Source: Patescibacteria group bacterium (GTDB taxonomy: Bacteria > Patescibacteriota > Minisyncoccia > Minisyncoccales > UBA5738). Taken from it: DNA of 64,000 nt. How positions within the stretch are numbered: the stretch's first letter is position 1; each line of letters opens with the position of its first letter. Location of the stretch: contig JAKLGH010000001.1 in assembly GCA_022710775.1 (NCBI GenBank), forward strand, positions 134,522 to 198,521, given 5' to 3'. Shown one piece after another: positions 42,060-59,034 of this stretch. Made by a program: the position numbers and the translations under genes. Under the pieces are notes generated by a model that worked only from the letters and a program-made list of their open reading frames with translations, was not told the DNA's origin and ran no database searches.

Positions 42060-42144
42060 TTTATTCCTCCTTTATATTTAATGAGCTGAAACTTTAGGCT
42101 TCAAAATACCCCATACCCTCGATTTTGTCAATAAAAATCAAGCC

Positions 42145-42177
42145 GCAAAAAAACCGGATTGCTTGTTTCCGGTTTTT
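42145..42177. terminator. bidirectional terminator (aaaccgga-ttgcttgtt-tccggttttt)
   Basis: 3' of small gene 42177..42365. Confidence 0.55.
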
Positions 42178-42365
42178 CAAATTCGAGCTTGGCCGCTATC
42201 CGGCCTGCTTTGTTTTAAAGCATTTATCTTTCTTTTCAAAGTCAACACGTTTCTTCCGGTCTCCTCGCCAAACACATCAGCAAATTCCAAAAGGATCTCG
42301 ATCAATTCATCGCTCGCCCCGTGCTGGTCTTCCAAAGCCTTGACCCTCTCAATAAGATGTTGCAT
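42177..42365 (-). CDS. small hypothetical protein (62 aa)
   Basis: ORF only; lies between the P-array and the kinase-like gene. Confidence 0.35.
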   Translation of the reverse strand: MQHLIERVKALEDQHGASDELIEILLEFADVFGEETGRNVLTLKRKINALKQSRPDSGQARI

Positions 42366-42439
42366 TCAATCTCTCCATCAAAAAATTAAGGAACTGGATT
42401 CAAACTAGTATTGCGAAAACAAAATGTCAATACTTGGAA

Positions 42440-45400
42440 CTATTGTTCTTCCCAATCCGGAATGGACTTTTTTACCATTATGTTTTTCTCCAGCGAACAG
42501 GTATAGCCGCTGGAATCCGTAACCGTGAGCTTGGTCGTATAGTTGCCCTTGACCGGGTAAACAACCGTAAAAGTCTCAGCCACGGAAGTGTTTGGTACCG
42601 CGCCCTGGATAACCCAGGACCGGGAAGCGAACGTTGCTCCGCCGAAAACTTGCGTGTCATCGGTGTATGTCACTATATCATCCACTTTTGGATCGGCAGG
42701 GCTTAAACTGAAATCAACCGACGGATATCCGTGGAGCGGGGTCGTAAAGCCCGTTCCGGTGATCCAGCCGGATTCTTGGCCTTGGCTATCCCAAACCTTA
42801 AGGCGCCAGTAATATGCGGTATCATATTGAAGTTTTGAAGCCAGTGTTGCGTAGCTATTAGATGACGAAATTATTTTTCCCGAATCGTCGGCCGGCGATG
42901 AAAAATCGGGATCGTCGTCAACTTGCACCTGGCAGTGAGCCTGGGGATTGTTTTCAGGATCGGAGTAATTCCAGGAAAAAATAGTAGCCAAGCCGCTGGC
43001 GCAAAAATCGTTTTGAAAAACCAAAGTATCGGCGGCTGGCGGATCATTGCTCACGCTAACAGTAACCGTAGCGCTTTCGCTGGCTGCCAGGCTTTCCCGC
43101 TCAACGATCATTTTCGGAACGTAAAGGCCAGCCGCGGCGTAGGTATGATTAAGCGTTTTTACGGCGGCGCTGGAGCCGTCCTCTTTGTCGTCCCAAGCCC
43201 CGCAGGCAATAAGGCAGCCTGCTACGGTCGAACAGCTGTCGTTGCAATCGAACCAAACGGTGTAATTAATGGTACCGGCGGCAGTGCCGGATACCGTACC
43301 CGTTAAAACTACATTTAACGGAGCTGACCCAGAATCAGGAGCGGCAACAACATCAACCGATAACGTTGCCGGGCCGCCGCCGGAAACAACAGTTACAGTA
43401 TCGGTGTCGGAAGCGGTCAGGCTCGCCCGCTCCACAACGATCTTGGGAGTATAAACTCCGATGGCGGCGTAGGTATGATTAAGCGTTTTTACGGCGGCGC
43501 TGGAGCCGTCCTCTTTGTCGTCCCAAGCTCCGCAGGCAATAAGGCAGTCGGCTACGGTCGAACAGCTGTCGTTGCAATCAAACCAAGCGGTGTAATTAAT
43601 GGTACCGGCGGCAGTGCCGGACACCGTGGCCGCAAGAATAGTGGCAAGCGGAGCGTTGCCGGAAAACGGAGCCGCGGCAATATCAACCAATAACGTTGAA
43701 GCCGGGGAAACGGTAACCGTATCGCTTCCGAAGGCAACCATCGATCCGCGCTCCACGATGATCTTAGGCAGGTAAGTACCGGCGGCTGCGTAAGTATGGA
43801 CATAGCTTTTCACAGTATCGTTGGAACCGTCGTCTTTTGCGTTCCAAACGCCGCAATCAGCCACGCAGCCAACTACCGTCGAACAAGCGCTGTTACAATC
43901 ATACCAGACAGTGTAATTAACGGTTCCCGCGATATTGCCCGAAACCGTAGCGGTAATAGTCGTATCCAATGGCGCATTGCCGTGATCCGGACTAACGGCA
44001 ACCGCCACGTTCAGCGTTTTCGGACAGCTGGAACTCGCTACGCATTGGGATTCCGAAAGGCAGCCGCTGGGAGCGCAAGTCCGGTTTTGGCGCATTTGAT
44101 CCGCGGCGCAACTGCCCAAACCGCAATCGTCGTCGGCCCAAGCGGTGCAAACGCAGCATGTAGGATCGGCTACGCATTGGGTTTCAGCAAGACAAGCGGC
44201 CGGATTGCAAGTCCGGGTCTGCAATTTTTGCAAAAGCGTGCATCCGCCCGTACCGCAAGTTCCGGCGGTGCTCCACGATCCGCAGGAACAGGCAGAAACC
44301 GAAGACCTCGCTTCAGCAGTTAGACCTTCTCGCTCAATGAGGACTTTCGGCGTAGCGCTAGCAGTATATGTCGTCAATATCGAATAAGTCGCCGAAGCGT
44401 TATTGAGCGACTGATGGTCGGGTGCCTGGCAAGCGGCTTGGCAAGCGGATAAAGTGGAACAGGTATCGTTGCAATTCCACCAAAAATAGTAATTCAAAGT
44501 TCCTTGAGCGTTGCCCGAAGCTGTCGCGGTCAGCATGCTGGACAAAGGCGAGTTGCCCGATGAAGGACTAACGCTCAAGGACGCCGATAAATTTATACAG
44601 GAATTATCGGCAACGCATTGGCTCGCCGATTGGCAGCCGGCCGGATTACAAACCCGGGTCTGATTGCGCTGGCGCAAACTGCAAGTTCCTCCGCCGCAAG
44701 CTCCATTGGTCCACGAACCGCAGGAACAGCAGGTAGCGTCATTTACGCACTGGCCTTCGCTTTTACAGCCGGCCGGAGTGCAAGTCCTCGTTTGGTATCT
44801 TTTAGTATCTTGGCACGAACCTCCTCCGCATGCCTGGTTCGTCCAGGCGCCGCAAGTACAGGGTATATAGGATACTGTCGAATAAGCCGCTTGCCACGTA
44901 TAAGCCGATGTGGACGAATTCGGACCGCCGGCAATAATAAGCTTGCCGAAAGGATCCCAGCGCTGCATAATCCCGCGATAATAAACAACGAATCGGGCAT
45001 TCCCGGAAAATGACGCCGTCGGAAGCACAAAAGTCTTGTTATATGAAAATGAATTCACTTTGGAAACGCTTGAAGGACTGTAGGATCCCAGTTTGATTAT
45101 TTTAGTCGCGCCGCCGGTATTCACCGTATCGACTTCGTCGCAATAAGGAATTTTTGAACTGCCGCACCAGTCCTGGATCTTGCCGCAACAGGAAGAACAC
45201 GGGCTCCATTTACAACCTGGCCATTTTAAAGGACAAGGCACGGACGGAGAAAGTGTCGGACAGGATCCGGCCGTCGAGCAGCTGTACATCAAACAGCTTT
45301 CCTGATCGTAATATTCATCGTTGCAAGCATCGATCAAAGGCACTTTGGCGTCTTCCATCATATAAAATTCCATTATACCGCCGCTCCAGCCCGCCGTGTA

Positions 45401-45613
45401 TCCTGAAGCCGCAACGTTTGACTTTACCGTCCCCGAAAAGGTTACTGTCTGTCCGTCGGTATAGGATCCGCTGACCGGACTTGTCGGCACTATCGTAGAA
45501 CCCCAATTACCGCAGCTCATCACGTTTGTCACCGCCGCGAATGACAGATCGGGAGCGACCCAAAAAATAGCAACGAATGCCAAAAATGCGGCAGATATGT
45601 TTTTTTTGGTCAT
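42440..45613 (-). CDS. giant secreted surface-protein paralog P1 (1057 aa): signal peptide, four Cys-rich TSP1-like repeats, three tandem PKD-like modules, FN3-like domain, C-terminal PKD domain ending ..SIPDWEEQ
   Basis: signal peptide MTKKNISAAFLAFVAIFWVAPDLSFA; repeats CxCxxWxxxxCGxGxCxxxQxxQTRxCxPxxCxxxxQCVxDxxC; C-terminal ~95 aa shared with P2-P5. Confidence 0.8.
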   Translation of the reverse strand: MTKKNISAAFLAFVAIFWVAPDLSFAAVTNVMSCGNWGSTIVPTSPVSGSYTDGQTVTFSGTVKSNVAASGYTAGWSGGIMEFYMMEDAKVPLIDACNDEYYDQESCLMYSCSTAGSCPTLSPSVPCPLKWPGCKWSPCSSCCGKIQDWCGSSKIPYCDEVDTVNTGGATKIIKLGSYSPSSVSKVNSFSYNKTFVLPTASFSGNARFVVYYRGIMQRWDPFGKLIIAGGPNSSTSAYTWQAAYSTVSYIPCTCGAWTNQACGGGSCQDTKRYQTRTCTPAGCKSEGQCVNDATCCSCGSWTNGACGGGTCSLRQRNQTRVCNPAGCQSASQCVADNSCINLSASLSVSPSSGNSPLSSMLTATASGNAQGTLNYYFWWNCNDTCSTLSACQAACQAPDHQSLNNASATYSILTTYTASATPKVLIEREGLTAEARSSVSACSCGSWSTAGTCGTGGCTLLQKLQTRTCNPAACLAETQCVADPTCCVCTAWADDDCGLGSCAADQMRQNRTCAPSGCLSESQCVASSSCPKTLNVAVAVSPDHGNAPLDTTITATVSGNIAGTVNYTVWYDCNSACSTVVGCVADCGVWNAKDDGSNDTVKSYVHTYAAAGTYLPKIIVERGSMVAFGSDTVTVSPASTLLVDIAAAPFSGNAPLATILAATVSGTAAGTINYTAWFDCNDSCSTVADCLIACGAWDDKEDGSSAAVKTLNHTYAAIGVYTPKIVVERASLTASDTDTVTVVSGGGPATLSVDVVAAPDSGSAPLNVVLTGTVSGTAAGTINYTVWFDCNDSCSTVAGCLIACGAWDDKEDGSSAAVKTLNHTYAAAGLYVPKMIVERESLAASESATVTVSVSNDPPAADTLVFQNDFCASGLATIFSWNYSDPENNPQAHCQVQVDDDPDFSSPADDSGKIISSSNSYATLASKLQYDTAYYWRLKVWDSQGQESGWITGTGFTTPLHGYPSVDFSLSPADPKVDDIVTYTDDTQVFGGATFASRSWVIQGAVPNTSVAETFTVVYPVKGNYTTKLTVTDSSGYTCSLEKNIMVKKSIPDWEEQ
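43070..44010 (-). repeat. intragenic tandem repeat in P1, period ~330 bp, three PKD-like modules (two copies share an identical ~100-bp core at 43141 and 43471)
   Basis: aggtatgattaagcgtttttacggcggcgctggagccgtcctctttgtcgtcccaagc occurs twice. Confidence 0.7.
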
Positions 45614-45649
45614 AAAAACCTTTCTTTTTCAGCCTCGATTATAGGCATA

Positions 45650-48600
45650 CTACAATTCCTCCCAATCCGGCAGGCTGCTGTTCACGGTAATATCCTTTTG
45701 AAGCGAACAGGTATAGCCGTTGGAATCGGTAACCGTAAGCTTGGTAACGTAATCTCCTTTAACGGCGTAGGTAACGGCCGGAGATTCCGCAACGGAGGTG
45801 TTCGGATTAGCGCCATCGATCTCCCAGGAGCGCGAAACGATCGTTGCCCCGCCGAATACTTGGGTTAGATCGGTATAGGTAATTAGTTCAGTTGCCTTGG
45901 GCGGAGCCGGAGTAGAACTGAAATCAATCGCCGGATAAGCGTGGAGCGGCGTTGAAAAATCAGGACCGTTAACCCAGCCGGAATCATTACCCCAGCTATC
46001 CCAAACTTTAACGCGCCAGTGGTAAACAATATCGTAACCAAGTTTTGAAGCCAAAGTTACGTAGCTCGTAGATGAAGCCGCCGCTTTGCCCGTGTCGTCG
46101 GCCGGAGAGGAAAAATCCGCATTATTATCAACCTGAACTTGGCGGAAAACCTGGGGGTCGTTTTCGGGATCCGAATAGGTCCAGGAAAACATGGTGGAAA
46201 GGCCGCTGCCGCAATAATCGGCCTGCTTCAACAAGGCAGTCGCCGACGGCGGACCGTTAATGGCAGTAACCGCCACTGTGCCGGCGGCGGCAAGGTTATG
46301 GCGCTCCACGATCATTTTGGGATGGAATGTTCCCGCGGCCGCGTAGGTATGGTTAATGGTACGGGTTACGGCGGCCTGGCCGTCGGCCTTGTCATCCCAG
46401 GCTCCGCAGGAGGCCTGGCAGGCGCTAACCGTGGCGCAGGGATCATCGCAATCCCACCAGGTAGTGTAATTGATGGTGCCGACCGCCGTGCCTCCCACCG
46501 TGCCGGTAATGGCTGTGGTTAACGGCGCTTGGGCGGAAACCGGACTGGCGGCCACGGAAACCGTAAGGGTCCGGGGACAAACCGCGCTGGCAACGCATTG
46601 TGATTCAATATTGCATCCGGATACGTTGCAGGTGCGGACCTGGCGCATCTGGTTAGCCGGACAGCCGCCCAATTCGCAATCATCATCGCTCCAAGCTCCG
46701 CAGACGCAACAAGCGATATCATTAACGCATTGGGTTTGGGCAAGGCAGTTGAGCGGGTTGCAAATTCTTGTTTGTTCCCGCTGCAGCGGGCCGCAGCTTC
46801 CCGCCCCGCAGGCCGCATTAGACCAGGCGCCGCAATCGCAATAGTTCACCAAAAAATCGAGGGCGCTATCGCCCGCCAGATCCCATGAGCGCTGGTCGGA
46901 ATACGAACATTTAACGAATTTGTTCTGGCCCGCAACCTGATATTCGTAAGTGGCCGCGTTAGTATGGCAAGTATTGTTTGAAACACCGTGGATGAAATTA
47001 TATCCGGCCGGCAATCCCGAAGATATCCGGACGCAGTAGCTGTCGCCCAAGAAAATCGATTTTGCCCAATTGCCGGATGAATCCGTAGTCGCGGTTCCCG
47101 CGCCGCACAGATCAAGCACGGCATTCGGTATGCCGTTCCCTTTTTCGTCCTTGACGCTGCCGCCGATCGTTACCGGCTGCTTAACCGCAACCAGCACGTT
47201 GGGCGTGTAATCGCCAAACCATTCTTTTCCTTCCTGAATCATGCGCCATCGGAAATTATAATTTCCGGGAGTTACGGGAGCCGTAACATTAAATGAAAAT
47301 GTTTTGGAACTATTGGTCGAGACATCGCTTCCTACGCTTACCCGCGATAGACCCCAAGTGGTATTATCCTGCGGGTTCTGGGATCCTAAATTGTAATTTT
47401 TTGCCGTAGTCCAAGTGGTGTATCCGTTATTCTTCATCGTAATGGATATAGGATAGGTTTGCCCAACCGTCATAGTAGCCGGAACTGTCTGGCTGATATA
47501 TTGAGCATTGTTTCCCAACCGCTGGTAAGCAATAACCCAGCACCGCGAATTTTCCATGTAACTTGCGTCCATTGCGTCTGGATGCCACCTTTTGTATGTT
47601 CCTAGAAGCTCGATCCAAAAACGAACTCCATTGGATGTATCGAATCCGGTCGGTATGTCAAAAGTTTTATTCCATTGCGGGCTGCCTTGCAAACCATAAG
47701 GACCAACTGAGCCTAAAAGCGTAATCGGCTGACTAGCGGTGTTTAAACATCTTCGGCCGCCGCAATTATAAGTTGGAATATCCACATCCGAAGAAATGAA
47801 AAATTTAATGCTGGATATCAAATATCCTCCGCCATAAGGAGTATAGTTATGCCACAATCCTCCTCTAAAATTAACTGTTGGAGCGGATGGGCCAAGCGGA
47901 CTAGACCAAGACATCGAATCAATTGAGTATTCCGTAACGATGGTATAAGCGCTGGCTGATTGAGCGAAAAAAATCCCCGAGAGCGTAAAAAAGATTGGAA
48001 AAAATATCCAAACCATATTCCTGGAACGGTACTTCCAAACCAGAAACAAAATAAGGATAATTGCGATAAATATCGTTATCCATAAAAATACGGATTCATC
48101 CTTTTTTTCCTCAACCTCCTCGAACGCAATCGGATCCGTTTTAACATCTGCCGCTATCTCTGCCGGTTTTCCCGCTTCGTACTCGGAAAGCGTAACTCCG
48201 CCTTTGGCAATTTTAACTGAGACCAGCGGCGATGCAAAGTCTTTGTTTACGGATATGCTCCGTTCAAAAACATCGTCCTCCAGCGAACCCGAACCGTTTT
48301 CCGTTGCTATAATTTCTCCATCATCGATTATCTTGGCAGATATATCGATATCGATACCGTCTTGCACATATGTTTTCGAACCCTCCAAAGCAACCCGCAA
48401 AATAGCTGTTTCTCCGGCTAAATAGCTGGATTTATCAAGGCTTACGTCAAGAATATCCATAAAAGACGCCCCAATTTTTTCTTTGGCGATATAGCGGCCG
48501 GTTATAATATTTGACGCCGGACTTAAAGTCTTCGAATCAAAGAGCTGAATTGTGGCATTGTATATTCCCGGTTCTTTGATTTCTGGAAGTAGCAGTTCCA

Positions 48601-49294
48601 GATCCTTGCTCTCGCCCTTGATAAGCGAAATCGCGCTTCCGTCGACAGACTCATCCGCGCCGCCGCCGATAAGTTTTGTTTTTACCTTGAAGAATACATC
48701 CCTGTTCAAAACCGCAGTGTTGCCAACTTTCACCGATACCCGAGGCTGTTTTCCGACATAATGGTTTAAAAGCATCTCGATTAAAGCATCTTTTGGGTTT
48801 GGCGGATTCCAGCTTTCCAGCAACCATTTCGCTTCAGACAGCACTACTGGCGAACCGGCTCCTTTAACGGATACGGGAAATTCCCTGTAATCGAATTGAT
48901 AACCCTTTTCATTAGCCAGTATTAACTTCAATGTGGCGTTAGCTTCGGGAAGCGTATCAGGCAGAAAACACTCCGCTTCTTGGCTGATCGATCCTTCTGC
49001 CGGAAGGGTGAAAATTCCGCTAATGTCGCGCATCCACAGTTGTTTCGTTCCACTCTTATCCACGACCCACAGTTCGCAGGAAAGTGAGGTAAGCTTGTCG
49101 ATTGTTCCTCCCGAGACCGAAGCCTTAACTACTGCCCGTTCTCCGGCCTCCAACTCGCTTTCGTCAAAATAGGCTTCAAATATGCGGGGCTGGTTTTCCG
49201 AAGCCCATTCTTCAGCGTATGCCGGATAGATGGCCGCCATGCAAAATCCCATTAAAGAAAACGCGTAGATTGATATAAGTGATTTTTTTTTCAT
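45650..49294 (-). CDS. paralog P2 (1214 aa), apparently an in-frame fusion: an upstream ~425-aa secreted protein ending in a TM anchor + KYRSRN, directly followed by a new signal peptide (MVWIFFPIFFTLSGIFFAQSASA) and a ~790-aa P-type module ending ..SLPDWEEL
   Basis: no stop between ..LVWKYRSRN and MVWIFF.. (around 48020); downstream part contains two TSP1-like repeats, PKD, FN3-like and C-terminal PKD domains. Confidence 0.75.
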   Translation of the reverse strand: MKKKSLISIYAFSLMGFCMAAIYPAYAEEWASENQPRIFEAYFDESELEAGERAVVKASVSGGTIDKLTSLSCELWVVDKSGTKQLWMRDISGIFTLPAEGSISQEAECFLPDTLPEANATLKLILANEKGYQFDYREFPVSVKGAGSPVVLSEAKWLLESWNPPNPKDALIEMLLNHYVGKQPRVSVKVGNTAVLNRDVFFKVKTKLIGGGADESVDGSAISLIKGESKDLELLLPEIKEPGIYNATIQLFDSKTLSPASNIITGRYIAKEKIGASFMDILDVSLDKSSYLAGETAILRVALEGSKTYVQDGIDIDISAKIIDDGEIIATENGSGSLEDDVFERSISVNKDFASPLVSVKIAKGGVTLSEYEAGKPAEIAADVKTDPIAFEEVEEKKDESVFLWITIFIAIILILFLVWKYRSRNMVWIFFPIFFTLSGIFFAQSASAYTIVTEYSIDSMSWSSPLGPSAPTVNFRGGLWHNYTPYGGGYLISSIKFFISSDVDIPTYNCGGRRCLNTASQPITLLGSVGPYGLQGSPQWNKTFDIPTGFDTSNGVRFWIELLGTYKRWHPDAMDASYMENSRCWVIAYQRLGNNAQYISQTVPATMTVGQTYPISITMKNNGYTTWTTAKNYNLGSQNPQDNTTWGLSRVSVGSDVSTNSSKTFSFNVTAPVTPGNYNFRWRMIQEGKEWFGDYTPNVLVAVKQPVTIGGSVKDEKGNGIPNAVLDLCGAGTATTDSSGNWAKSIFLGDSYCVRISSGLPAGYNFIHGVSNNTCHTNAATYEYQVAGQNKFVKCSYSDQRSWDLAGDSALDFLVNYCDCGAWSNAACGAGSCGPLQREQTRICNPLNCLAQTQCVNDIACCVCGAWSDDDCELGGCPANQMRQVRTCNVSGCNIESQCVASAVCPRTLTVSVAASPVSAQAPLTTAITGTVGGTAVGTINYTTWWDCDDPCATVSACQASCGAWDDKADGQAAVTRTINHTYAAAGTFHPKMIVERHNLAAAGTVAVTAINGPPSATALLKQADYCGSGLSTMFSWTYSDPENDPQVFRQVQVDNNADFSSPADDTGKAAASSTSYVTLASKLGYDIVYHWRVKVWDSWGNDSGWVNGPDFSTPLHAYPAIDFSSTPAPPKATELITYTDLTQVFGGATIVSRSWEIDGANPNTSVAESPAVTYAVKGDYVTKLTVTDSNGYTCSLQKDITVNSSLPDWEEL

Positions 49295-49470
49295 TTACCG
49301 TTAAGTTAAGTTATTTCTTACGTCTATCTTATATTTTATATTTTAATGCTTATTATCGGTAACGTAAACTCTTATCAAAGGATATCTTTTAACCGCAATT
49401 TACAAACTCTTATACCTAGGTAGCCGTACGCAAAAAAGCCGTTATGGTTTTTTTAAAAGACTATCCTGGC

Positions 49471-51720
49471 CTAACCCTCCTCCCAGTCCGGAATGCTCTT
49501 CTTGACCGTAATGTTCTTTGTGGCCGAGCAGGTATAGCCTTGGGAATCGGTGACCGTAAGTTTGGTGGAATAGTCGCCTTTTGCCGCGTAGGTAACGGCC
49601 GGAGATTCCGCAACGGAGATGTTCGGATCAGCGCCATCGATCTCCCAGGAGCGCGAAACGATCGTTGATCCGCCGAATATCTGGGTTAGATCGGTATAGG
49701 TGATCAGTTCCGCCGCTTTCGGGGTCGAAGGCGTCCAGCTGAAATCGATCGCGGGATAGCCGTGGAGCGGGGTCGTGAAGCTGGGACCGCTCACCCAGCC
49801 GGAATTATTGCCCGCGCTGTCCCAAACCTTGATGCGCCAGTAGTAAGTGGTGTTGTAGGCAAGCTTGGAAGACAGAACGGTGTAGCTGGTCGATGACGCG
49901 GCCGCTTTGCCCGTGTCGTCAACCGCTGAAGAGAAATTGGAATTATCGTCCACCTGCACCTGGCGGAAAGCCTGGGGATCGTTCTCGGGATCCGAATAGG
50001 TCCAGGAAAACATGGTGGAAAGGCCGCTGCCGCAATAATCGGTCTGATTCACCAAAGCGCTCACCGACGGCGGACCGTTGATAACAGTTACCGCGACGGA
50101 ACCGGAAGCCGAAAGGCTGTGGCGTTCCACGATCATTTTAGGATGGAAAATTCCCGCGGCCGAATAGGTGTGGTTAAGAGCGCGAACCATAGCGGCCTGG
50201 CCGTCGGCCTTGTCATCCCAGGCTCCGCAGGCAGCCTGGCAGTCGCTAACCGTGGCGCAGGGGTCATCGCAATCCCACCAGGTGGTGTAATTGATGGTGC
50301 CGACCGCCGTGCCTCCCACCGTTCCGGTAATGGTCGTGGCCAGGGGGGCGTTGCCCGTGTTCGGATTAGCTGTCAGGGATAAAGTAAGGGTGCGGGGGCA
50401 GGAAGCGGAAGCCGCGCATTGGGATTCAACGTCGCAAGCGGCCGGATTGCAGGTCCGGGTCTGGCGCATCTGGTTAGCCCCGCAGGTCCCCAGGCCGCAA
50501 TCATCGTCGGCCCAGGCGGTGCAAACACAGCAGGTGGCGTCGGCTACGCACTGGCTTTGGGTCAGGCAATTGACCGGATTGCAGGTCCGGGTCTGCTGGC
50601 GCTGGAGCGTGGTGCAGCTTCCGGCGGCGCAAGCCCCATTGGCCCAGGGAGTGCAGGCGCAGGCCGGGCCGGTCACAGTAAAGGATTTCACTGGCGTTTG
50701 GTTAACGTTCCCGGCACGGTCCGTCGCTTTAAGATAATAAGTATGGGAACTGCCGGACGAGTAAGGCCCGGCGGTAAAAACGCATTGCTGTAAAGAGGTT
50801 TGGCCGGCAAAAGGACATGATTTTGCGAGAACCCCGTCAACGTAAATTGAAATATTCGTTAAACCGCTAAGAGCATCCTGGCCATTCGCGGTATAAGTTA
50901 CTGAATCCGTGTTTGCGACCGAAACCGGCGAATGGTTAATGCTCGCCGTTGGTTTTGCGCGATCAAGGCCGAACCCTATAATATCGGACTTGCCGCTTGA
51001 AGGCGAACCGATATTAAAAGGATCCACTTGTCCGTTTAACATGATATAAAAAGACCAAGTATGCCACCCATCCTGAATTCCGGTTTTTTTCACATTATAC
51101 GTACCCGCTCCACCCGATATTAGCTCATAAAACATATTGCCTTTCCCGTTCAACACGTCGTCAATCCAAATAACTCTGGTTCCGGTGGTACCATATAACG
51201 GCGTAAATTTATCGAGTTTGATCTGGTAAGTGGGATCGGTATTGATCCAGATATTTTTTGGGCCAACCGGTTCGTAATCAATCCCCTTGCCGGTTGATTC
51301 AAGATGCACATGAAGATCGGAAGTCCTGCCGGTTATGTCGTTGAAATTTGAGTAGTAGTAACAAGCGTTGAACGAACGGTAGCTGCCGCCGCCATCGATG
51401 TCCATTACGAACCTATCGTTCTTTTTCAGGCAAACAGACGCCGATGATCCGTTGGAAACGATTGCCGAATCCGTCACTTGTCCGGTTGACATCGATTCAG
51501 CGGTAAGCTTTATTTTAGCCACCTTCACTATTGCTTGGCTTGAATAGGCCCGGGTCGTTACGCGTATCTCTGCCATGCCGGAACCGCAGCTGTTGCCCTT
51601 AACCCAATCATATTGATACAGCCAGCCAGAGGTCGATCCGGCAATAGCCTGGCCGGAAAAACAAAATACCGCCAAAAAAAAAGTCGTAGCCGCAACTGTT
51701 GCAATTTGTTTTTTGGTCAT
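49471..51720 (-). CDS. paralog P3 (749 aa): signal peptide, N-terminal beta-rich domain, two TSP1-like repeats, PKD, FN3-like, C-terminal PKD ending ..SIPDWEEG
   Basis: 3' ~1.2 kb near-identical to P4 and closely similar to P2. Confidence 0.8.
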   Translation of the reverse strand: MTKKQIATVAATTFFLAVFCFSGQAIAGSTSGWLYQYDWVKGNSCGSGMAEIRVTTRAYSSQAIVKVAKIKLTAESMSTGQVTDSAIVSNGSSASVCLKKNDRFVMDIDGGGSYRSFNACYYYSNFNDITGRTSDLHVHLESTGKGIDYEPVGPKNIWINTDPTYQIKLDKFTPLYGTTGTRVIWIDDVLNGKGNMFYELISGGAGTYNVKKTGIQDGWHTWSFYIMLNGQVDPFNIGSPSSGKSDIIGFGLDRAKPTASINHSPVSVANTDSVTYTANGQDALSGLTNISIYVDGVLAKSCPFAGQTSLQQCVFTAGPYSSGSSHTYYLKATDRAGNVNQTPVKSFTVTGPACACTPWANGACAAGSCTTLQRQQTRTCNPVNCLTQSQCVADATCCVCTAWADDDCGLGTCGANQMRQTRTCNPAACDVESQCAASASCPRTLTLSLTANPNTGNAPLATTITGTVGGTAVGTINYTTWWDCDDPCATVSDCQAACGAWDDKADGQAAMVRALNHTYSAAGIFHPKMIVERHSLSASGSVAVTVINGPPSVSALVNQTDYCGSGLSTMFSWTYSDPENDPQAFRQVQVDDNSNFSSAVDDTGKAAASSTSYTVLSSKLAYNTTYYWRIKVWDSAGNNSGWVSGPSFTTPLHGYPAIDFSWTPSTPKAAELITYTDLTQIFGGSTIVSRSWEIDGADPNISVAESPAVTYAAKGDYSTKLTVTDSQGYTCSATKNITVKKSIPDWEEG

Positions 51721-51774
51721 GTTAAAGCCTATTAGCGTATTAACTTTTTTATCTGTAAAAAAATCCGGCTTAGG

Positions 51775-52242
51775 TTAATCTTTATTTGCTCCCAATACAA
51801 TGCCAAAATCCGTATCTTTTGACAAATAGACCGTATCGGCGATAAATTCCGGGGTACCGACATTTCCGCCTCTTCCAATTACGCTGATAATATCTCCCGG
51901 AATGATGTCGCTTCGCTCAACCCTTGTTCCGTCCCTAAAAATTTCCGTCGATTCCCCAATCGAAAAAGTTATCGATTCCCCGTCCTGTTCAAAAGTAAGG
52001 GCAGATGAAACCGGATCAAAAGATCCGATTTTTCCCGTCGCGCCGCTTTCGGTCTGAGACAACAAAACATTATCCGGTTTGGCGGCAGCCTCTTTCGCCT
52101 CGGAATCCTCCGGGATGATTGGCGCGATTTCGGCAGCTTCTTTCTTTTGAATTTGACGAACCGAAAAATAAACAAATATAAAGATCGTAAGAATAAATAA
52201 AAAAAGAGCAAAAATTATTATGGCGGTTTTGGCTTTATTCAT
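51775..52242 (-). CDS. small single-TM protein S1 (155 aa), partner family of the P paralogs
   Basis: N-terminal TM; C-terminal ..GDIISVIGRGGNVGTPEFIADTVYLSKD.. shared with S2 and S3. Confidence 0.6.
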   Translation of the reverse strand: MNKAKTAIIIFALFLFILTIFIFVYFSVRQIQKKEAAEIAPIIPEDSEAKEAAAKPDNVLLSQTESGATGKIGSFDPVSSALTFEQDGESITFSIGESTEIFRDGTRVERSDIIPGDIISVIGRGGNVGTPEFIADTVYLSKDTDFGIVLGANKD

Positions 52243-52278
52243 TTTAATATTGATGCTTGGATTTATAAGATATCCATC

Positions 52279-54531
52279 CTATCCCTCCTCCCAGTCCGGA
52301 ATGCTCTTCTTGACCGTAATGTTCTTTTCTAGCGAGCAGGTATAGCCGTTGGAATCGGTAACCGTGAGCTTGGTAGCGTAATCGCCCTTTGCCGCATAGG
52401 TAACGGCCGGGGATTCCGCAGCGGAAGTATTCGGATTCGCGCCTTCGATCTCCCAGGAGCGCGAAACGATCGTTGATCCGCCGAATACCTGGGTTAGATC
52501 GGTATAGGTGATCAGTTCCGTTGCTTTCGGGGTCGAAGGCGTCCAGCTGAAATCGATCGCGGGATAGCCGTGGAGCGGGGTCGTGAAGCTGGGACCATTC
52601 ACCCAGCCGGAATTATTGCCCGCGCTGTCCCAAACCTTGATACGCCAGTAGTAAGTGGTGTTGTAGGCAAGCTTGGAAGACAGAACGGTGTAGCTGGTCG
52701 ATGACGCGGCCACTTTGCCCGTGTCGTCAACCGCGGAAGAGAAATTGGAATTATCGTCCACCTGGATCTGGCGGAAGGTCTGGGGATCGTTCTCGGGATC
52801 CGAATAGGTCCAGGAAAACATGGTGGAAAGGCCGCTGCTACAATAATCGGCCTGCTTCACCAAAGCGCTCACCGACGGCGGACCGTTGATAACAGTTACC
52901 GCGACGGAACCGGAAGCCGAAAGGTTGTGGCGTTCCACGATCATTTTAGGATGGAAAGTTCCCGCGGCCGAATAGGTGTGGTTAAGAGCGCGAACCGCAG
53001 CGGCCTGGCCGTCGGCCTTGTCATCCCAGGCTCCGCAGGCGGCCTGGCAGGCGCTCACCGTGGAGCAGGGATCATCGCAATCCCACCAGGTGGTGTAATT
53101 GATGGTGCCGACCGCCGTGCCTCCCACCGTTCCGGTAATGGTCGTGGCCAGGGGGGCGTTGCCCGTGTTCGGATTAGCTGTCAGGGATAAAGTAAGGGTG
53201 CGGGGGCAGGAAGCGGAAGCCGCGCATTGGGATTCAACGTCGCAAGCGGCCGGATTGCAGGTCCGGGTCTGGCGCATCTGGTTAGCCCCGCAGGTCCCCA
53301 GGCCGCAATCGTCATCGGCCCAGGCGGTGCAAACGCAGCAGGTGGCGTCGGCCACGCACTGGCTTTGGGCGTCGCAGGCCACCGGATTGCAGGTCCGGGT
53401 CTGCTGGCGCTGGAGCGTGGTGCAGCTTCCGCCGGCGCAAGCCCCATTGGCCCAGGGAGTGCAGGCGCAGGCCGGTGCGGTAACATTAAAAGATTTCGTC
53501 GATGTTGTGGTCTTGTTCCCTGCCAGGTCAGTGGCAACCGCGTAATAATTATGGCTGCTGTTGGCGGCATACGGTCCGCCTGCGTATTGGCAGGTTTGGG
53601 CGCTGACCGCGCCGGAAAAATTACAGGTTTTCTTTACCGAACCGTCGACGTAAATGCTCACGGTATCCAAACCGCTCAACGCGTCTTGCGCGTTTGCCGT
53701 GATCGTTACCGTGGACGTACTGTCCGGCGATGCCGGACTGTGGCTTACGCTGGCAGTCGGTTTGGCTCGGTCGATGCCGTAGCCTACCCAGGGAGCAACC
53801 CCGCTATATAACGGATTGGGCTGATTATTAAAACCAAGCTTGAAGAACCATTGGTGCCAACCATCGGATAAGCCAAGCTTTGGCAAATTGTATTTTCCAA
53901 CCCCGCCGGAAACGTTGACCGTGCTGTATTTCTTATTGCCATTGAACGAATCGGCCATCATAATTACTGAAAGTGAAGTGGCGCTATGAACGCCCGGCAT
54001 TGAAGCTAATTGGACCGTAAACTGAGGATCGTAATTCACCCAAACATTATTTGGAAAAGCCGAAAAATAAGCCATTCCTTGGCTGATCGGCGTTAAATGG
54101 ACATGCGAATCCCATTTTGCTCCAACTGATTGTGCGGGACTGGTTGGATAATAAGATGTGTAAAAATCGTGGTAAGAAGAAGTTTCATCAACGATCGTCT
54201 CAACAGACTCATTGTAAACATCAAGGCAAATATATGATGTTGTGCCGGTACCCGAAACCGACCTGACTATCTTGTTGTCAGATTGCCGTCTTATGTTGAG
54301 CGTAATATTGCTGCTAGCTATATTTTCCGTAGTTCCCTTTAAAGCAAGAACTCTTATCAGCGCCCCGTTAGAACCGCAAGCTGAAGAATTACCGGCTTCA
54401 ACTTTAACTTGCCAGCCATAATTGGCTTGCGCAGAATCAATACTGCAAAAACCGCCAAAGAAAAGCAAGCAGCAGATAAAAAAATTTTTAAAATATTTAT
54501 AATAATTTGAAGCCATGTAAATTATTAACAA
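52279..54531 (-). CDS. paralog P4 (750 aa), same architecture as P3, ending ..SIPDWEEG
   Basis: see P3. Confidence 0.8.
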   Translation of the reverse strand: MLIIYMASNYYKYFKNFFICCLLFFGGFCSIDSAQANYGWQVKVEAGNSSACGSNGALIRVLALKGTTENIASSNITLNIRRQSDNKIVRSVSGTGTTSYICLDVYNESVETIVDETSSYHDFYTSYYPTSPAQSVGAKWDSHVHLTPISQGMAYFSAFPNNVWVNYDPQFTVQLASMPGVHSATSLSVIMMADSFNGNKKYSTVNVSGGVGKYNLPKLGLSDGWHQWFFKLGFNNQPNPLYSGVAPWVGYGIDRAKPTASVSHSPASPDSTSTVTITANAQDALSGLDTVSIYVDGSVKKTCNFSGAVSAQTCQYAGGPYAANSSHNYYAVATDLAGNKTTTSTKSFNVTAPACACTPWANGACAGGSCTTLQRQQTRTCNPVACDAQSQCVADATCCVCTAWADDDCGLGTCGANQMRQTRTCNPAACDVESQCAASASCPRTLTLSLTANPNTGNAPLATTITGTVGGTAVGTINYTTWWDCDDPCSTVSACQAACGAWDDKADGQAAAVRALNHTYSAAGTFHPKMIVERHNLSASGSVAVTVINGPPSVSALVKQADYCSSGLSTMFSWTYSDPENDPQTFRQIQVDDNSNFSSAVDDTGKVAASSTSYTVLSSKLAYNTTYYWRIKVWDSAGNNSGWVNGPSFTTPLHGYPAIDFSWTPSTPKATELITYTDLTQVFGGSTIVSRSWEIEGANPNTSAAESPAVTYAAKGDYATKLTVTDSNGYTCSLEKNITVKKSIPDWEEG

Positions 54532-54532
54532 G

Positions 54533-55018
54533 TTATAAAACCAAAAAAGGCTCGTTAAAAGGCTCGTTATCTATTTCAGTCGCATAAATCGAATCGGCTT
54601 TGATATCGGTCGAAGATTCCGTTTCTCCGCGGCCGATAACGCTGATCAAATCCCCTTCGATCAAAGAAGCGGATTTAACTTGTAAATTATCTTTAAAGAT
54701 CACTGTGTTTTCAGTAAGGCTTACGTTATATGTCTTTTCGGGCGCGGCAACCGTCAATGATCCTGATTCAAGATCGATCTTTTCCAAAATGCCGGTAAAA
54801 GAAATCTTAACCGCAGCACCAGTACTGTTTTCGGTCTCGACCACGCTGGCGGCTTCTTGATCCCGTTCATCGGAATTCTTTGAAAACGCACTTTCGTTTT
54901 TTTCGTTTTTCTTTCCATCTTTCTCGGTATTTTCTGCGTTCAATAACAATAGAAGAGCAGCAATGAAAATAATTGCCAAGGTAAAGAATATTACAGACGT
55001 TTTAGTTGATATTTTCAT
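54533..55018 (-). CDS. small single-TM protein S2 (161 aa); its stop abuts the P4 start
   Basis: ..IEGDLISVIGRGETESSTDIKADSIYATEID.. Confidence 0.6.
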   Translation of the reverse strand: MKISTKTSVIFFTLAIIFIAALLLLLNAENTEKDGKKNEKNESAFSKNSDERDQEAASVVETENSTGAAVKISFTGILEKIDLESGSLTVAAPEKTYNVSLTENTVIFKDNLQVKSASLIEGDLISVIGRGETESSTDIKADSIYATEIDNEPFNEPFLVL

Positions 55019-55080
55019 ATGTTAAAAAATTTTAATCAATGATTATTATATTATAGCCCTAATCTGCTGTTTCAATAAGC

Positions 55081-57957
55081 CTATATCTCTTCCCAATCCG
55101 GAATACTGCTCTTAACGGTAACTTCTTCTTCCAGCGAGCAGGTATAGCCGTTAGAATCGGTAACCGTAAGCTTGGTCGTGTAGTCCCCTTTGACGTTATA
55201 TAAAACAACCGGAGATTCCGCGACAGAGGTGCTCGGATTCGCGCCTTCGATCTCCCAGGAGCGCGCGACAATTGTAGCTCCGCCAAATACCTGGGTTTGG
55301 TCGTCGTAAGTAATCGCCTCCCACACTTTTATCCGGCCCGGAACAAAGTCAAAATCCACCGCCGGATAACTGTGCAGCGGGGTCGTAAAATCTGATCCGT
55401 TGATCCAACCCGAATCGTTTCCTTTATCGTCCCAAACCTTAAGCCGCCAATGGTAAGTAGTATTGTAGGCAAGGCTGCTGGCTAAAGTTACATAACTTGT
55501 AGAAGAAGTCGCAATTTTACCGGTATCGTCGGCCGGCGAGGAAAAATCGGAATCGTCGTCCACCTGGATCTGGCGGAAGGTCTGGGGATCGTTCTCGGGA
55601 TCGGAATAGTTCCAAGAGAATATCGTCGATAAACCGATGGCGCAGAAATCGTTTTGTTTAACAAGAGTATCGGCGGACGGAGGGGCGTTGAGAGCAATGA
55701 CGTCAGCGATGTCGGAAGCAACCAGGCCTTGGCGTTCCACGATCATTTTAGGATGGAATGTCCCGGAAGAAGAATAGGTATGGTCAAGAATTCGGGTAGA
55801 CACGCCAACCCCGTCGGCCTTGTCATCCCAGGCTCCGCAGGCAGCCTGGCAGCCGCTCACCGTAACGCAGGGATCATCGCAATCCCACCAGGTGGTGTAA
55901 TTGATGGTGCCGACCGCCGTGCCTCCCACCGTTCCGGTAATGGTCGTGGCCAGGGGGGCGTTGCCGATATCCGGAGCTGCCGCCAGGGATGCCGTGAGAG
56001 TTCTGGGACAGCTCGCGCTGGCCGCGCACTGGCTTTCGGCAAGGCAGGCAGCCGGAGTGCAGGTCCGGGTCTGGCGCATCTGGCTGGCACCGCAGGTTCC
56101 CAAGCCGCAATCGTCGTCGGCCCAGGCGCCGCAGGAACAAACTGGCGCGTTAACAGTGACGGTCACGCGCCCGCCGTTGAACAAACCTTGCCGCTCGACC
56201 ACGGTTTTAGCATAGTACGTTCCCGCAACGGTATAAGTATGGTTTGCGGCATAAGTAGCGCTGGCTTGGTTCAATGACGTGATATCCTGAACTCCGCAAG
56301 CGGTTTGGCAGGCAGCCAGACTGGTACACGTACTGTTGCAATTCCACCAAACATAGTAATTGATGTTTCCGGAGGCGGTTCCGCCGACGGTCGCGTTCAG
56401 CGTCGACGCGAGCGGAGCGTCTCCCTGCCAGGGATTCATGGTCATTAATAGCGACAAACTCGGAGGCGGGGTGCCGCAGGCCGCGTGGTTAGCGCATTGC
56501 CAATCCGCGGCACAACCCCAAGGCATACAATTTCGAGTTTGGGTCATTTGGGTGATAGGGCAAGGGCCGCCGCACGCGATATTTGACCATGCGGTGCAGG
56601 AACAGCTTGAACAAGCGGCATCGGCAACGCACAAATTATTAATGTCGCACCCTACCGGATTGCAGGTCCGGGTCCGCAAACGCTGGGCGGCGGTACAGCC
56701 TCCGGCGGCGCAGGAACCATTAACCCAAGCCGTGCAGGAGCAGGATCCGCCGCAGGCGGCGTCGGCTACGCACTGGCTTTCGGCGTCGCAGGCGGCCGGA
56801 GTGCAGGTCCGGGTCTGCTGGCGCTGGGCGGCGGTACAGCCTCCGGCGGCGCAGGAGCCGTTAACCCAAGCCGTGCAGGAACAGGATCCGCCGGAAATGG
56901 TAAAGTTGGCGGTCGCCAAAGTCTGGATATTCCCCGCGCGATCCCTTGCTACCGCGTAATAGGAGTGGCTGGATCCGGCGGCGTAGGGGCCGACGACTAC
57001 CGAACAGGTTTGCTGGGTAGTTTCTCCGGCGAAATTACAAGTCTTTACGGATGTTCCGTCAACAAAAATTTGAGCGGTATCCATTCCGCTTAATACGTCT
57101 CTCACAGGCGCCGTTATGGTAATTTGATCGTCGCTGTCAGGAGCGGCGGGAGATTTTGAAGCCGAAGCAACCGGTTTGACCCGATCGATCCCATATGCGG
57201 TATCTACGCCGCGGCTGCTAACCGGTTTCCCGTTTTCAACTGATGACCCGTTTAAAAAAAGATAATACGACCACATACGCCAGCCATCCGACAAACCCTT
57301 GGGACCGATCGTTTTTAAACCGGTTCCCGAAGGATAATTTTGCAGCCATTGCGTCACAACACTGTTAAAATTGTCCATCAATATAATGTTCAACAAACCG
57401 GTAATATTGTGAATGCTCGGATAGGATATCAGGTTTATCTTAAATTGAGGATCATAGTTTATCCATCCGGAAACTGGTTCAACGGCCTGGTAGTTAGGCC
57501 CCTGGGCCGTTGCGGCCAAATGAACGTGATGAGTAACGGTAGTACCGCTCAACAAAGGCGTTCTATCGCCGAAATGAACGTAAAAGTCCCAATAATTAGA
57601 TCCGCCGACAATCGTAATTACGTAAGCGTATGCGAAGTTCGAGGAAACGCAAAAAGCCATGCTCGATGAGTTGTAAACGGTGTTTGACTGAACAACAACG
57701 TTATTTCGGGAAATCGTAACGCTAAATTGGCTGGGATTCGCCGCCGTTTCGTTATTCCATTGCCTTGTGTAAAAATTAACTTTTGTTTGGCCGGCCGGAC
57801 AACCGGCTACTCCGGTTGTATCTCCATACCATAAATAGCCGGCTTGCTGGGCAAAGGCTTTCCCGCCAGGCATTGCCAACGCAAATAAAAACGCCGCCAA
57901 AAAAAATATTTCTGACGCTATCTTAAAAAATCTTCTTTTTGCAAACATTCTCGGCAT
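55081..57957 (-). CDS. paralog P5 (958 aa): signal peptide, N-terminal domain, five Cys-rich TSP1-like repeats (two from a recent 141-bp tandem duplication), PKD, FN3-like, C-terminal PKD ending ..SIPDWEEI
   Basis: as described. Confidence 0.8.
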   Translation of the reverse strand: MPRMFAKRRFFKIASEIFFLAAFLFALAMPGGKAFAQQAGYLWYGDTTGVAGCPAGQTKVNFYTRQWNNETAANPSQFSVTISRNNVVVQSNTVYNSSSMAFCVSSNFAYAYVITIVGGSNYWDFYVHFGDRTPLLSGTTVTHHVHLAATAQGPNYQAVEPVSGWINYDPQFKINLISYPSIHNITGLLNIILMDNFNSVVTQWLQNYPSGTGLKTIGPKGLSDGWRMWSYYLFLNGSSVENGKPVSSRGVDTAYGIDRVKPVASASKSPAAPDSDDQITITAPVRDVLSGMDTAQIFVDGTSVKTCNFAGETTQQTCSVVVGPYAAGSSHSYYAVARDRAGNIQTLATANFTISGGSCSCTAWVNGSCAAGGCTAAQRQQTRTCTPAACDAESQCVADAACGGSCSCTAWVNGSCAAGGCTAAQRLRTRTCNPVGCDINNLCVADAACSSCSCTAWSNIACGGPCPITQMTQTRNCMPWGCAADWQCANHAACGTPPPSLSLLMTMNPWQGDAPLASTLNATVGGTASGNINYYVWWNCNSTCTSLAACQTACGVQDITSLNQASATYAANHTYTVAGTYYAKTVVERQGLFNGGRVTVTVNAPVCSCGAWADDDCGLGTCGASQMRQTRTCTPAACLAESQCAASASCPRTLTASLAAAPDIGNAPLATTITGTVGGTAVGTINYTTWWDCDDPCVTVSGCQAACGAWDDKADGVGVSTRILDHTYSSSGTFHPKMIVERQGLVASDIADVIALNAPPSADTLVKQNDFCAIGLSTIFSWNYSDPENDPQTFRQIQVDDDSDFSSPADDTGKIATSSTSYVTLASSLAYNTTYHWRLKVWDDKGNDSGWINGSDFTTPLHSYPAVDFDFVPGRIKVWEAITYDDQTQVFGGATIVARSWEIEGANPSTSVAESPVVLYNVKGDYTTKLTVTDSNGYTCSLEEEVTVKSSIPDWEEI
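56540..56900 (-). repeat. intragenic tandem repeat in P5, period 141 bp (~2.5 copies) encoding duplicated Cys-rich module (..CSCTAWVNGSCAAGGCTAAQR..TRTC..P..CD...CVADAAC)
   Basis: gctgggcggcggtacagcctccggcggcgcagga.. recurs at 56682 and 56823. Confidence 0.7.
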
Positions 57958-57994
57958 TTTGTCATTTACGTTAGATTTTTAAAAATTGTTTCGC

Positions 57995-58235
57995 CTATAT
58001 CTCCTCCCAATCGGGTATGCTGCTTTTCACATTAATATTCTTTTCCAGCGAGCAGGCATTGATCGGTTTCAAAAATATAATACGCGCCGCTCGGACCGCA
58101 GGAAAAATCAGGCCCTAAAAAATCCATACCCCAATAATATCCCGCTTCGGATGCCTTAACATTTTTCGGAAAAACCAGGATAACCGCCAGGAATAAAATG
58201 ATTGGAACAACTCTTAATTTCATTAAAATTTGCAA
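57995..58235 (-). pseudogene. deletion remnant/mini-paralog: P-family signal peptide (MQILMKLRVVPIILFLAVILVFPKNVKASEAG..) joined, out of frame, to the last ~20 codons of a P gene (..INACSLEKNINVKSSIPDWEEI*)
   Basis: ORF 58032..58235 ends early; an adjacent frame through 57995 encodes the conserved C-terminal CSLEKNI.VK.SIPDWEE tail; a 1-nt change in a T5 run would fuse them. Confidence 0.6.
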
Positions 58236-58240
58236 AAATG

Positions 58241-58684
58241 CTATTTTATCTTGTCTCCAATTGCCGGAAACTGGATCGGCTCCGAAATATACAGGGTGTC
58301 AACGACAAAACCAGGATCATTGATAGTCTTGCCGCGGCCCAGAATCGATACGCTTGCCCCCGCTTTTATTTTTTCTTCGTCCGCCCTTTTTCCTTCGTAA
58401 AAAATTTCAACTGTCTTGGAAAGCGAAACCGGAATTTCTTTTCCGGCGCCGTCGCTGATCAATAATTTTTTATCCGGCGCGCTGAATGAAACGATATATC
58501 CCGTCAATCCCGAATGCTGCTGGCCCGGAATATAGACCTGCTGGCCGGTATTCTTTGGCGTCAAAGCTCCGGCCTTATCCGCTTTTGGCGAATTTATGGA
58601 TTTTTCTTTCCGGTATTGTAAAAACAAGCCGATTAAAACGCTCATTGTCGCTAAAAGTAAAACAATGATTATTTTCTTTTTCAT
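58241..58684 (-). CDS. small single-TM protein S3 (147 aa)
   Basis: ..KAGASVSILGRGKTINDPGFVVDTLYISEP.. Confidence 0.6.
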   Translation of the reverse strand: MKKKIIIVLLLATMSVLIGLFLQYRKEKSINSPKADKAGALTPKNTGQQVYIPGQQHSGLTGYIVSFSAPDKKLLISDGAGKEIPVSLSKTVEIFYEGKRADEEKIKAGASVSILGRGKTINDPGFVVDTLYISEPIQFPAIGDKIK

Positions 58685-58902
58685 ATGGCGCTTTTAAATT
58701 GATGAAAAATATCCTTACAACTCAATAAAAATCAGACATCGTTTCGAATAGATGCTGGCATAAAACGGCAGAAAAGAAACGCTTTCCTCAATACTCATCG
58801 ATTAATATATTATAATGTTTTATCCCGATTTCTCAAACTGGTTCTTTGGCTATCTTTTTTGAATTTCGCGCCGGTAGTCCGAACAAACTGAAAAACATCA
58901 GT

Positions 58903-58935
58903 TCTTACAATTCCTCCCAATCCGGCCGGCTGTTG
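58903..58935 (-). pseudogene. ~30-bp relic of a P2-like 3' end (..RPDWEEL*; ttacaattcctcccaatccggccggctg vs P2 ctacaattcctcccaatccggcaggctg)
   Basis: sequence identity to the extreme 3' end of P2 followed by unrelated sequence. Confidence 0.5.
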
Positions 58936-58989
58936 TTACCCTTAAATATTTTACCATTATTAAGGGCTTTGCGAACTCTGAACGTCTAA

Positions 58990-59015
58990 ACAAAAATGCC
59001 CTCTAGGGCATTTCT
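58990..59015. terminator. terminator (atgccc-tcta-gggcat + ttt)
   Basis: 3' of SIMPL gene 59035..59826. Confidence 0.5.
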
Positions 59016-59034
59016 GGCTTGATTTTTCAAAGGT

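Follow-up and report, generated by a model that had tools for sequence, protein, structure and literature searches.

The 64,000-nt stretch of DNA analyzed here, referred to below as the window, is part of an assembly of a Patescibacteria group bacterium (GCA_022710775.1, contig JAKLGH010000001.1, positions 134,522 to 198,521) and contains five large paralogous genes, P1 to P5, which form one tandem array and are all located on the minus strand (Table 1). All of them (5/5) are complete open reading frames (ORFs) with a start codon and a predicted signal peptide, and the sole truncated copy in the array is a relic of a sixth paralog with a deletion and a frameshift. The P3, P4, and P5 units start at intervals of 2,808 and 2,802 nt, corresponding to a repeat unit of ~2.8 kb, of which the small gene S3 upstream of P3 is a variable part. 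The P3 protein starts with the signal peptide and a variable N-module of three β-sandwich domains, followed by two Cys-rich repeats of ~45 amino acids (aa), a Cys-containing PKD-like domain, an Ig_Rha78A_N (FN3-like) domain, a PKD domain, and a tail with the sequence IPDWEEG. The subject of this study is the 3′ part of these genes, which the paralogs share as a block with very different degrees of identity.

The shared 3′ block and its boundaries

The 3′ halves of P3 and P4 were 94.4% identical over 1,219 nt without a gap, up to the stop codons (blastn). An earlier note on this DNA had described these halves as near-identical with scattered substitutions and had located them correctly. It had also reported the block for P2 and, more loosely, for P5; both copies were recovered, and a copy of the distal part was found in P1, too (identities in Table 1). 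The 5′ halves of P3 and P4 gave no match to each other at the DNA level (blastn), in agreement with the view of the note that they are unrelated, but at the protein level this view could not be maintained, as the 5′ halves of P3, P4, and P5 are colinear homologs with 34 to 38% identity (tblastn E values of 3e-66 and 4e-54).

In the codon alignment of P3 and P4, identity was 37 to 60% over the first ~350 codons and then rose to 90 to 100% within ~20 codons. A maximum chi-square test placed the breakpoint after nt 1031 of the P3 gene (window position 50690; ~53,498 in P4), with 52% differences upstream and 5.6% downstream (chi2 607, permutation p<5e-4). Here, at the 5′ edge of the block, the first Cys-rich repeat begins (FTVTGP followed by ACACTPW), so that the edge is a domain boundary. 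A second breakpoint was found at window position ~49637, where the proportion of differences rises from 4.1% to 15.3%, the latter value applying to the final ~165 nt. In this 3′ tail (49471-49636), P3 carries private states where P4, P2, P5, and P1 agree, and just upstream of the tail P3 is closer to P2 (95%) than to P4. The tail marks the 3′ edge of the recent P3/P4 tract.

The synonymous divergence (dS, calculated according to Nei-Gojobori) between P3 and P4 was 0.11 in the block, compared to a saturated value of ~2.8 in the 5′ half, and the identity at third codon positions was 91% in the block and 36% in the 5′ half. The synonymous divergence of the S genes was likewise saturated. With a ratio of nonsynonymous to synonymous divergence (dN/dS) of 0.33 between P3 and P4, the block is under purifying selection. 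The difference in dS shows that the block and the 5′ half differ in age. A single duplication date combined with selection at the protein level, which is blind to synonymous sites, cannot give both dS values; the ancestor of the block must therefore be much younger than that of the 5′ half, and recombination is required to account for this.

Several perfectly identical tracts were present inside the block. The longest of them extends over 239 nt in P3 (50264-50502) and P4 (53072-53310), both on the minus strand, and is longer than expected by chance (p~2e-4); it reflects either the latest conversion event or a partial collapse during assembly. Shorter perfect tracts lie in backgrounds of 72 to 79% identity. 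They comprise 99 nt in P5 (55867-55965) and P4 (53065-53163; background 74%), 92 nt in P3 and P5, 58 nt in P2 (46164-46221) and P3 (49985-50042), and 38 nt that are identical across P2 to P5 including all synonymous positions. When polymorphic sites were permuted in a GENECONV-type test, p values of 2e-4 were obtained for the pairs P4-P5, P3-P5, and P2-P3 and of 4e-4 for P3-P4, the range across all tract-sharing pairs being 2e-4 to 8e-3, and P1 gave little or no tract signal. In agreement with the earlier note, the alignment of the five genes has a mosaic block structure, and divergence is not uniform along the gene.

Table 1. Positions of the array genes and of their subregions in the window
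Feature	Position	Strand	Remarks
P1	42440-45613	minus	1,057 aa
P1 copy of the distal block part	42446-43288	minus	68% identity to the other copies, ~850 nt, 7-11 gap openings
P2	45650-49294	minus	1,214 aa
P2 block copy	45657-46827	minus	78-79% identity to P3/P4, 1,171 nt, ungapped, dS ~0.85
P3	49471-51720	minus	749 aa
P3 3′ block	49471-50689	minus	partner: P4 52279-53497
P3 divergent 3′ tail	49471-49636	minus	~165 nt, ~15% divergence from P4
P3 diverged 5′ half	50690-51720	minus	predicted signal peptide and three-domain N-module; 38% aa and ~48% nt identity to P4
Assembly-variable stretches	49789-49971, 52597-52855		variable in loci L001, L002, L003
S3	51775-52242	minus	155 aa, upstream of P3; N-terminal hydrophobic segment
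P4	52279-54531 (annotated start 54516)	minus	745/750 aa; P3-like architecture
P4 3′ block	52279-53497	minus	partner: P3 49471-50689
P4 diverged 5′ half	53498-54531	minus	counterpart of the P3 5′ half
S4	54533-55018	minus	161 aa, upstream of P4; S3 paralog
P5	55081-57957	minus	958 aa
P5 block copy	55081-56128	minus	74-75% identity to P3/P4, ~1,050 nt, 6-7 gap openings
Relic of sixth paralog	57997-58235	minus	between S5 and P5
S5	58241-58684	minus	147 aa, upstream of the relic; S3 paralog
Cys-rich repeats	50400-50670, 53210-53480, 56000-56900, 44150-44860	minus

Recombination among the paralogs and competing explanations

A search of 5.8 billion proteins with P3 returned essentially the five paralogs of the organism itself and a handful of relatives, and a protein-guided scan of metagenome contigs yielded nothing beyond the sister species already known and distant relatives. 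An exact 38-mer had no match in these contigs, a collection from which the source contig is evidently absent. Clear orthologs of P1 and P2 were present in two related genomes, L008 (GCA_964443175.1) and bin-0821; for P3 and P4, no ortholog was identified in the related genomes compared. In a tree of the C-terminal blocks, P3 and P4 were nested in the clade formed by P2 and its orthologs, whose N-terminal halves are of another type. The block of P2 was 79% identical to those of P3 and P4, but only 70% identical to that of its ortholog B9 in bin-0821; orthology in this family is only segmental, because domains have been shuffled between its members. P1 mostly paired with its ortholog B10b of bin-0821. 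A parallel tract was observed in bin-0821 itself: B9 and the non-orthologous paralog B10a are 98% identical in a 90-nt window, compared to 68% overall, and this stretch is an independent conversion tract. In L008, the C-terminal blocks of the paralogs are only ~47% identical as proteins, which indicates that homogenization is lineage-specific.

These results are best explained, and we have considerable confidence in this, by a tandem family of secreted multidomain proteins that evolves in concert through gene conversion within the genome and, now and then, through unequal exchange. The earlier note had favored gene conversion or unequal crossover over a diversity-generating retroelement (DGR), and the difference in dS, the sharp breakpoints, the significant subtracts, the substitution spectrum, and the failure to find a reverse transcriptase among the window ORFs scanned support this preference. 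Non-reciprocal homologous recombination would repeatedly copy stretches of the block among the paralogs, so that the 3′-terminal 0.85 to 1.2 kb would evolve in concert. The latest and most extensive copying would have taken place between the neighbors P3 and P4, P2 and P5 would be tied in by older or shorter tracts, and P1, which with a block dS of 1.6 to 1.9 mostly escapes homogenization, would barely have been touched. At 68 to 79% identity, maintained by purifying selection, the block copies could still pair, and conversion would lift their identity further. A nucleotide identity of ~48% would be too low for the 5′ halves and the S genes to serve as recombination substrates, and, being unable to pair, they would continue to diverge. 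The edge of conversion would then be the onset of usable DNA homology at the first Cys-rich repeat. We infer RecA-type gene conversion as the mechanism and, likewise, the direction of each transfer; no recA gene was seen among the ORFs scanned in the 64-kb window. Further signs of turnover in the array are the deleted sixth paralog, a domain of 624 nt that is inserted in P5 as compared to P3 and P4, and the repeats within P1.

A number of points weigh against recurrent gene conversion. Neither a population variant nor an alternative junction that would point to ongoing exchange was seen among the assemblies compared. The step in identity between P3 and P4 is accounted for equally well by a single chimera-forming event. 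All data are at the level of assemblies, and as short-read assemblers alter the repeat, some of the identity, for example that of the 239-nt run, may be overstated. Finally, the orthology behind the comparison of identities within and between genomes is only segmental, the family being domain-shuffled.

The single event just mentioned would be a recent tandem duplication of an S-P unit, after which the S gene and the N-module were replaced by a divergent cassette; the source of the cassette could be a different member of the array or foreign DNA, with the flanking C-terminal blocks acting as homology arms. In line with such an origin, the family is domain-shuffled, the P3/P4 breakpoint falls on a domain boundary, and each variable cassette lies between two C-terminal blocks in direct orientation, spaced by 2,808 and 2,802 nt. 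The N-module is moreover portable: an exhaustive HMMER search recovered a family of 871 representatives (E<=1e-3; E~1e-170 for the organism's own paralogs), and in many of the homologs (P0023-P0092) the module is N-terminal and precedes unrelated C-terminal architectures of 439 to >2,000 aa. However, the nested short perfect tracts shared by P4 and P5 and by P2 and P3, the graded identities among P2 to P5, the divergent 3′ tail within the P3/P4 block, and the independent tract in bin-0821 are all left unexplained. We regard a one-off chimera of either source as unlikely; it would in any case be recombination all the same and would differ from repeated conversion only in the number and direction of the events.

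Even less likely, in our view, is that the direct repeats of the C-terminal block serve as homology arms for the programmed deletion, duplication, or swapping of N-module cassettes. If they did, the partner specificity of an episymbiotic bacterium of the candidate phyla radiation (CPR) could be changed via its host-binding N-modules, and this turnover would have left its traces in the loss of the sixth copy and in the contig breaks described below. Invertible or phase-variable elements were also considered and were rejected, as scans of positions 42000-59500 for inverted repeats and for promoters and terminators gave only short matches at chance level.

The window was identical to JGI contig Ga0116241_10000047 (404,584 bp), and the same locus is present in the NCBI metagenome-assembled genome GCA_035452865.1 (Candidatus Paceibacterota bacterium). 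Gene order was recovered alike in five independent assemblies, the N-terminal halves were identical in five assemblies from different samples, and no alternative junctions were found among the assemblies compared. Two JGI assemblies agreed with the window, whereas the NCBI locus L001 and the ENA SPAdes contigs L002 and L003 differed from it at 13 positions over ~22 kb. All of these (13/13) are sites in the conserved block that distinguish P3 from P4, and in each of the three loci P3 equals P4 across nt 1605-2006 of P3. The variant sites fall into three switch units (P3 nt 1674-1690, 1750-1817, and 1887-1932) flanked by identical runs of 69, 59, 69, and 74 nt; L002 and L003 are equally long, and the variants chosen differ between them. 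These differences between the assemblies are probably an artefact of the assembler, namely, the collapse of bubbles in a de Bruijn graph at k ~55. Recombination in the population was rejected as their cause, since the two copies become identical in every variant assembly and the switch units correspond to bubbles, an artefact being judged most likely. The suggestion of the earlier note that the locus is a recombination hot region involved in antigenic variation is not borne out by these results, as there is no difference in the N-terminal halves among five assemblies and the 13 differing sites fit assembler collapse.

The behavior of these three assemblies raises the alternative that the near-identity of P3 and P4 was itself made or inflated by repeat collapse or mis-phasing during short-read assembly. 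In addition to the copies made identical at the distinguishing sites and the bubble-like switch units, the end of one JGI contig (L005, Ga0209202_1000039, 193,876 bp) at window position 50376, i.e., within the 239-nt identical run, is in accordance with this explanation. Nevertheless, 63 to 68 differences within the block are still present in the window, and two independent JGI assemblies are equal base for base across P4 (the second contig ends in P3). The flanks, that is, the N-terminal halves, the S genes, and the intergenic DNA, are unique, and gene order is the same in every assembly. As collapse erases differences, it cannot generate an ungapped homology of 1.2 kb with 5.6% difference. 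An assembly origin of the block is therefore very improbable: the existence of the block and the gene order are robust, whereas finer details, such as the perfect run and the phasing over extended stretches of identity, are less secure. Contigs of related species also break at such arrays, L006 and L007 starting 792 nt upstream of the last paralog and L010 inside an array paralog. There is also a lesson for practice: this repeat is the only place where the public short-read assemblies of the organism are in conflict, and calls of single-nucleotide polymorphisms or of "strain variation" in such arrays are not trustworthy without long reads.

Two further explanations can be dealt with briefly. 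If the block and the N-terminal halves were of equal age, with strong purifying selection on the former and diversifying selection on the latter, selection alone would have produced the pattern; the dN/dS of the block and the fact that conservation in distant homologs is likewise highest in the C-terminal block agree with this, but it is contradicted by the >20-fold synonymous contrast, by the third-position identities, and by the perfect tracts, which cover every synonymous site, and is thus scarcely credible. The least probable explanation, to which we assign almost no weight, is targeted mutagenesis of one copy by a DGR or another system: it is usually near-identical repeat pairs in surface-protein genes that first draw attention to a DGR, but the differences in the block (42 transitions and 21 transversions, 27/63 involving A, all six pair types) are not adenine-specific, as the earlier note had stated, and are spread over 1.2 kb rather than confined to a variable region of ~100 nt. 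Pfam scans of the array genes and of 30 other window ORFs of at least ~210 aa, which covered most ORFs of that size, revealed no reverse transcriptase, and together with the substitution spectrum this result led to the rejection of a DGR.

Protein architecture and genomic surroundings

The N-termini of the array proteins consist of a basic-hydrophobic segment followed by a motif of the AXA type (AIA/G, AQA/N, AFA/Q, SFA/A), suggesting a cleavable signal peptide; in the structural model of P3, an N-terminal helix spans residues 2-22. The N-module (P3 residues ~28-351, window 50668-51637) was modeled with 20 homologs as three β-sandwich domains (predicted local distance difference test score [pLDDT] 90), and its best structural matches were the BIg domains of the adhesin SiiE and strings of FN3 domains. 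No Pfam family matched the N-module in the scan of P1 to P5, and a word-indexed protein search with a three-sequence alignment of the module gave no match at all, not even to the paralogs in the window.

In the C-terminal part, Ig_Rha78A_N (PF25788) was detected in P1 to P5 with 31.7 to 47.3 bits (gathering cutoff 27.4) and PKD_4 (PF18911) in P1 to P4 with 30 to 55.7 bits (cutoff 27), whereas P5 remained below the cutoff with 22.7 bits. The block was modeled as a string of β-sandwiches (pLDDT 77), for which Foldseek returned only matches to FN3/Ig strings. The Cys-rich repeats (CxCxxW..x..CxxGxC...QxxQTRxCxPxxCxxxxQC) occur one to five times per paralog, are modeled as small three-stranded units, and had no Pfam match even at E<=10. 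Their likeness to TSP1 domains (CxCxxW...CxxGxC...QxRxC) had neither Pfam nor fold support, and an identity as TSP1 was rejected.

All family members end with the invariant hydrophilic tail (S/G)(I/L)PDWEE-x (e.g., window 49474-49500), which is still recognizable in distant relatives (SLPEWEESSK, SLPDFED, PPQWIEI) and could be a recognition or sorting tag. The C-termini of P1 to P5 contain no hydrophobic segment or recognizable sorting motif. The idea of the earlier note that the conserved C-terminus anchors the proteins finds no support, since this part is a string of β-sandwiches with a hydrophilic tail and the sole hydrophobic segment is the N-terminal signal peptide. The architecture, made up almost wholly of Ig-, FN3-, and PKD-like β-sandwich domains, suggests a surface or adhesin role for the array proteins.

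Two of the paralogs have additional features. The N-terminal ~440 aa of P2 comprise a signal peptide, Ig-like domains, and a transmembrane-like segment (FLWITIFIAIILILFLVWKY), after which a second signal-peptide-like segment (MVWIFFPIFFTLSGIFFAQSASA) and the P-type body follow, so that P2 (45650-49294) looks like a fusion. In L008 (4711-6117 and 10777-14049), a protein of the type of this N-terminal part is encoded by a separate gene of 468 aa, yet the P2 ortholog is fused there, too. P1 contains three tandem intragenic repeats of 321 to 330 nt (43058-43953), which encode Cys-containing PKD-like modules; two of them are 86% identical overall and 96% identical over 164 nt (43134-43297 and 43464-43627), which points to intragenic duplication or homogenization.

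S3, S4, and S5 are each located directly upstream of a paralog of the N-module type, which in the case of S5 is the relic. They have the motif GD.ISV.GRG in common, had no Pfam match, and are 30 to 32% identical at the amino acid level, i.e., as diverged as the N-modules, of which they may be co-diverging partners. The relic contains an ORF of 67 codons for a signal peptide and ~30 N-module residues (GYYWGMDFLGPDFSCGPSGAYYIFETD) that resemble the start of the N-module of P3, P4, and P5; downstream of this ORF, and in another reading frame, are the terminal ~20 codons of a gene of the P type (CSLEKNINVKSSIPDWEEI, followed by the stop codon). Nearly the entire sixth paralog was thus lost by an internal deletion.

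The array is surrounded by ordinary chromosomal genes, among them those for a Ser/Thr kinase, adenylosuccinate synthetase, a SIMPL protein, and a histidine kinase. At the other end of the window, positions 1-1966 (minus strand) have a G+C content of 32%, compared to ~47% elsewhere, and contain a decayed Cas12a-like gene. Its ORF at 1142-1966 starts with MENKKTKTIYDNFTHQYSLAKTLRFELKPIGKT and matches the Pfam family REC1 (PF18501) with 77 bits; the frame is then broken by many stops. No CRISPR array was found in positions 1-2600.

Comparison with known systems

Repeated copies of surface-protein genes are known to exchange sequence by gene conversion in pilE/pilS of Neisseria, vlsE/vls of Borrelia, and mgpB/MgPar of Mycoplasma genitalium. 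In these cassette systems, one expression site is accompanied by silent, truncated, promoterless cassettes; the variable part is diversified, and conserved segments provide the homology for exchange. The array described here differs from them in that it consists of five complete ORFs without silent cassettes and in that the converted part is the conserved one, whereas the variable parts were identical in five assemblies. With DGRs, the array has in common the association of near-identical repeat pairs with genes for surface or ligand-binding proteins, but the scanned window ORFs contained no reverse transcriptase, and there is neither an adenine-specific pattern nor a short pair of variable region and template repeat.

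The closest parallel is provided by the adhesin paralogs babA/babB and homA/homB of Helicobacter pylori. According to the account of Pride & Blaser 2002 given in PMC3960876, their 3′ segments are more alike within than between genomes, their 5′ or middle parts diverge, and RecA-dependent intragenomic conversion creates chimeric genes. The array resembles these genes in combining homogenized 3′ with divergent 5′ parts in adhesin-like paralogs, but its members are adjacent in tandem, whereas the H. pylori loci are dispersed. Furthermore, the array encodes secreted β-sandwich strings in an uncultured CPR bacterium rather than β-barrel outer-membrane proteins, and the assemblies gave no sign of ongoing conversion or phenotypic switching.

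A genome-wide survey of prokaryotes reported rare, long-lasting concerted evolution of 26 genes (PMC6053082). In comparison, the array genes are homogenized only in part and to very different degrees among the five copies. A text search of the literature found no paper in which gene conversion is described for paralogous surface proteins of CPR bacteria. The array follows a well-known evolutionary pattern, to which it adds one more example but no new mechanism. It offers a clean and quantifiable case of what is probably partial-gene concerted evolution in an uncultured CPR bacterium with a reduced genome, in which intragenomic homologous recombination would shape the largest secreted proteins of the organism, the most likely mediators of its contact with a host or the environment.

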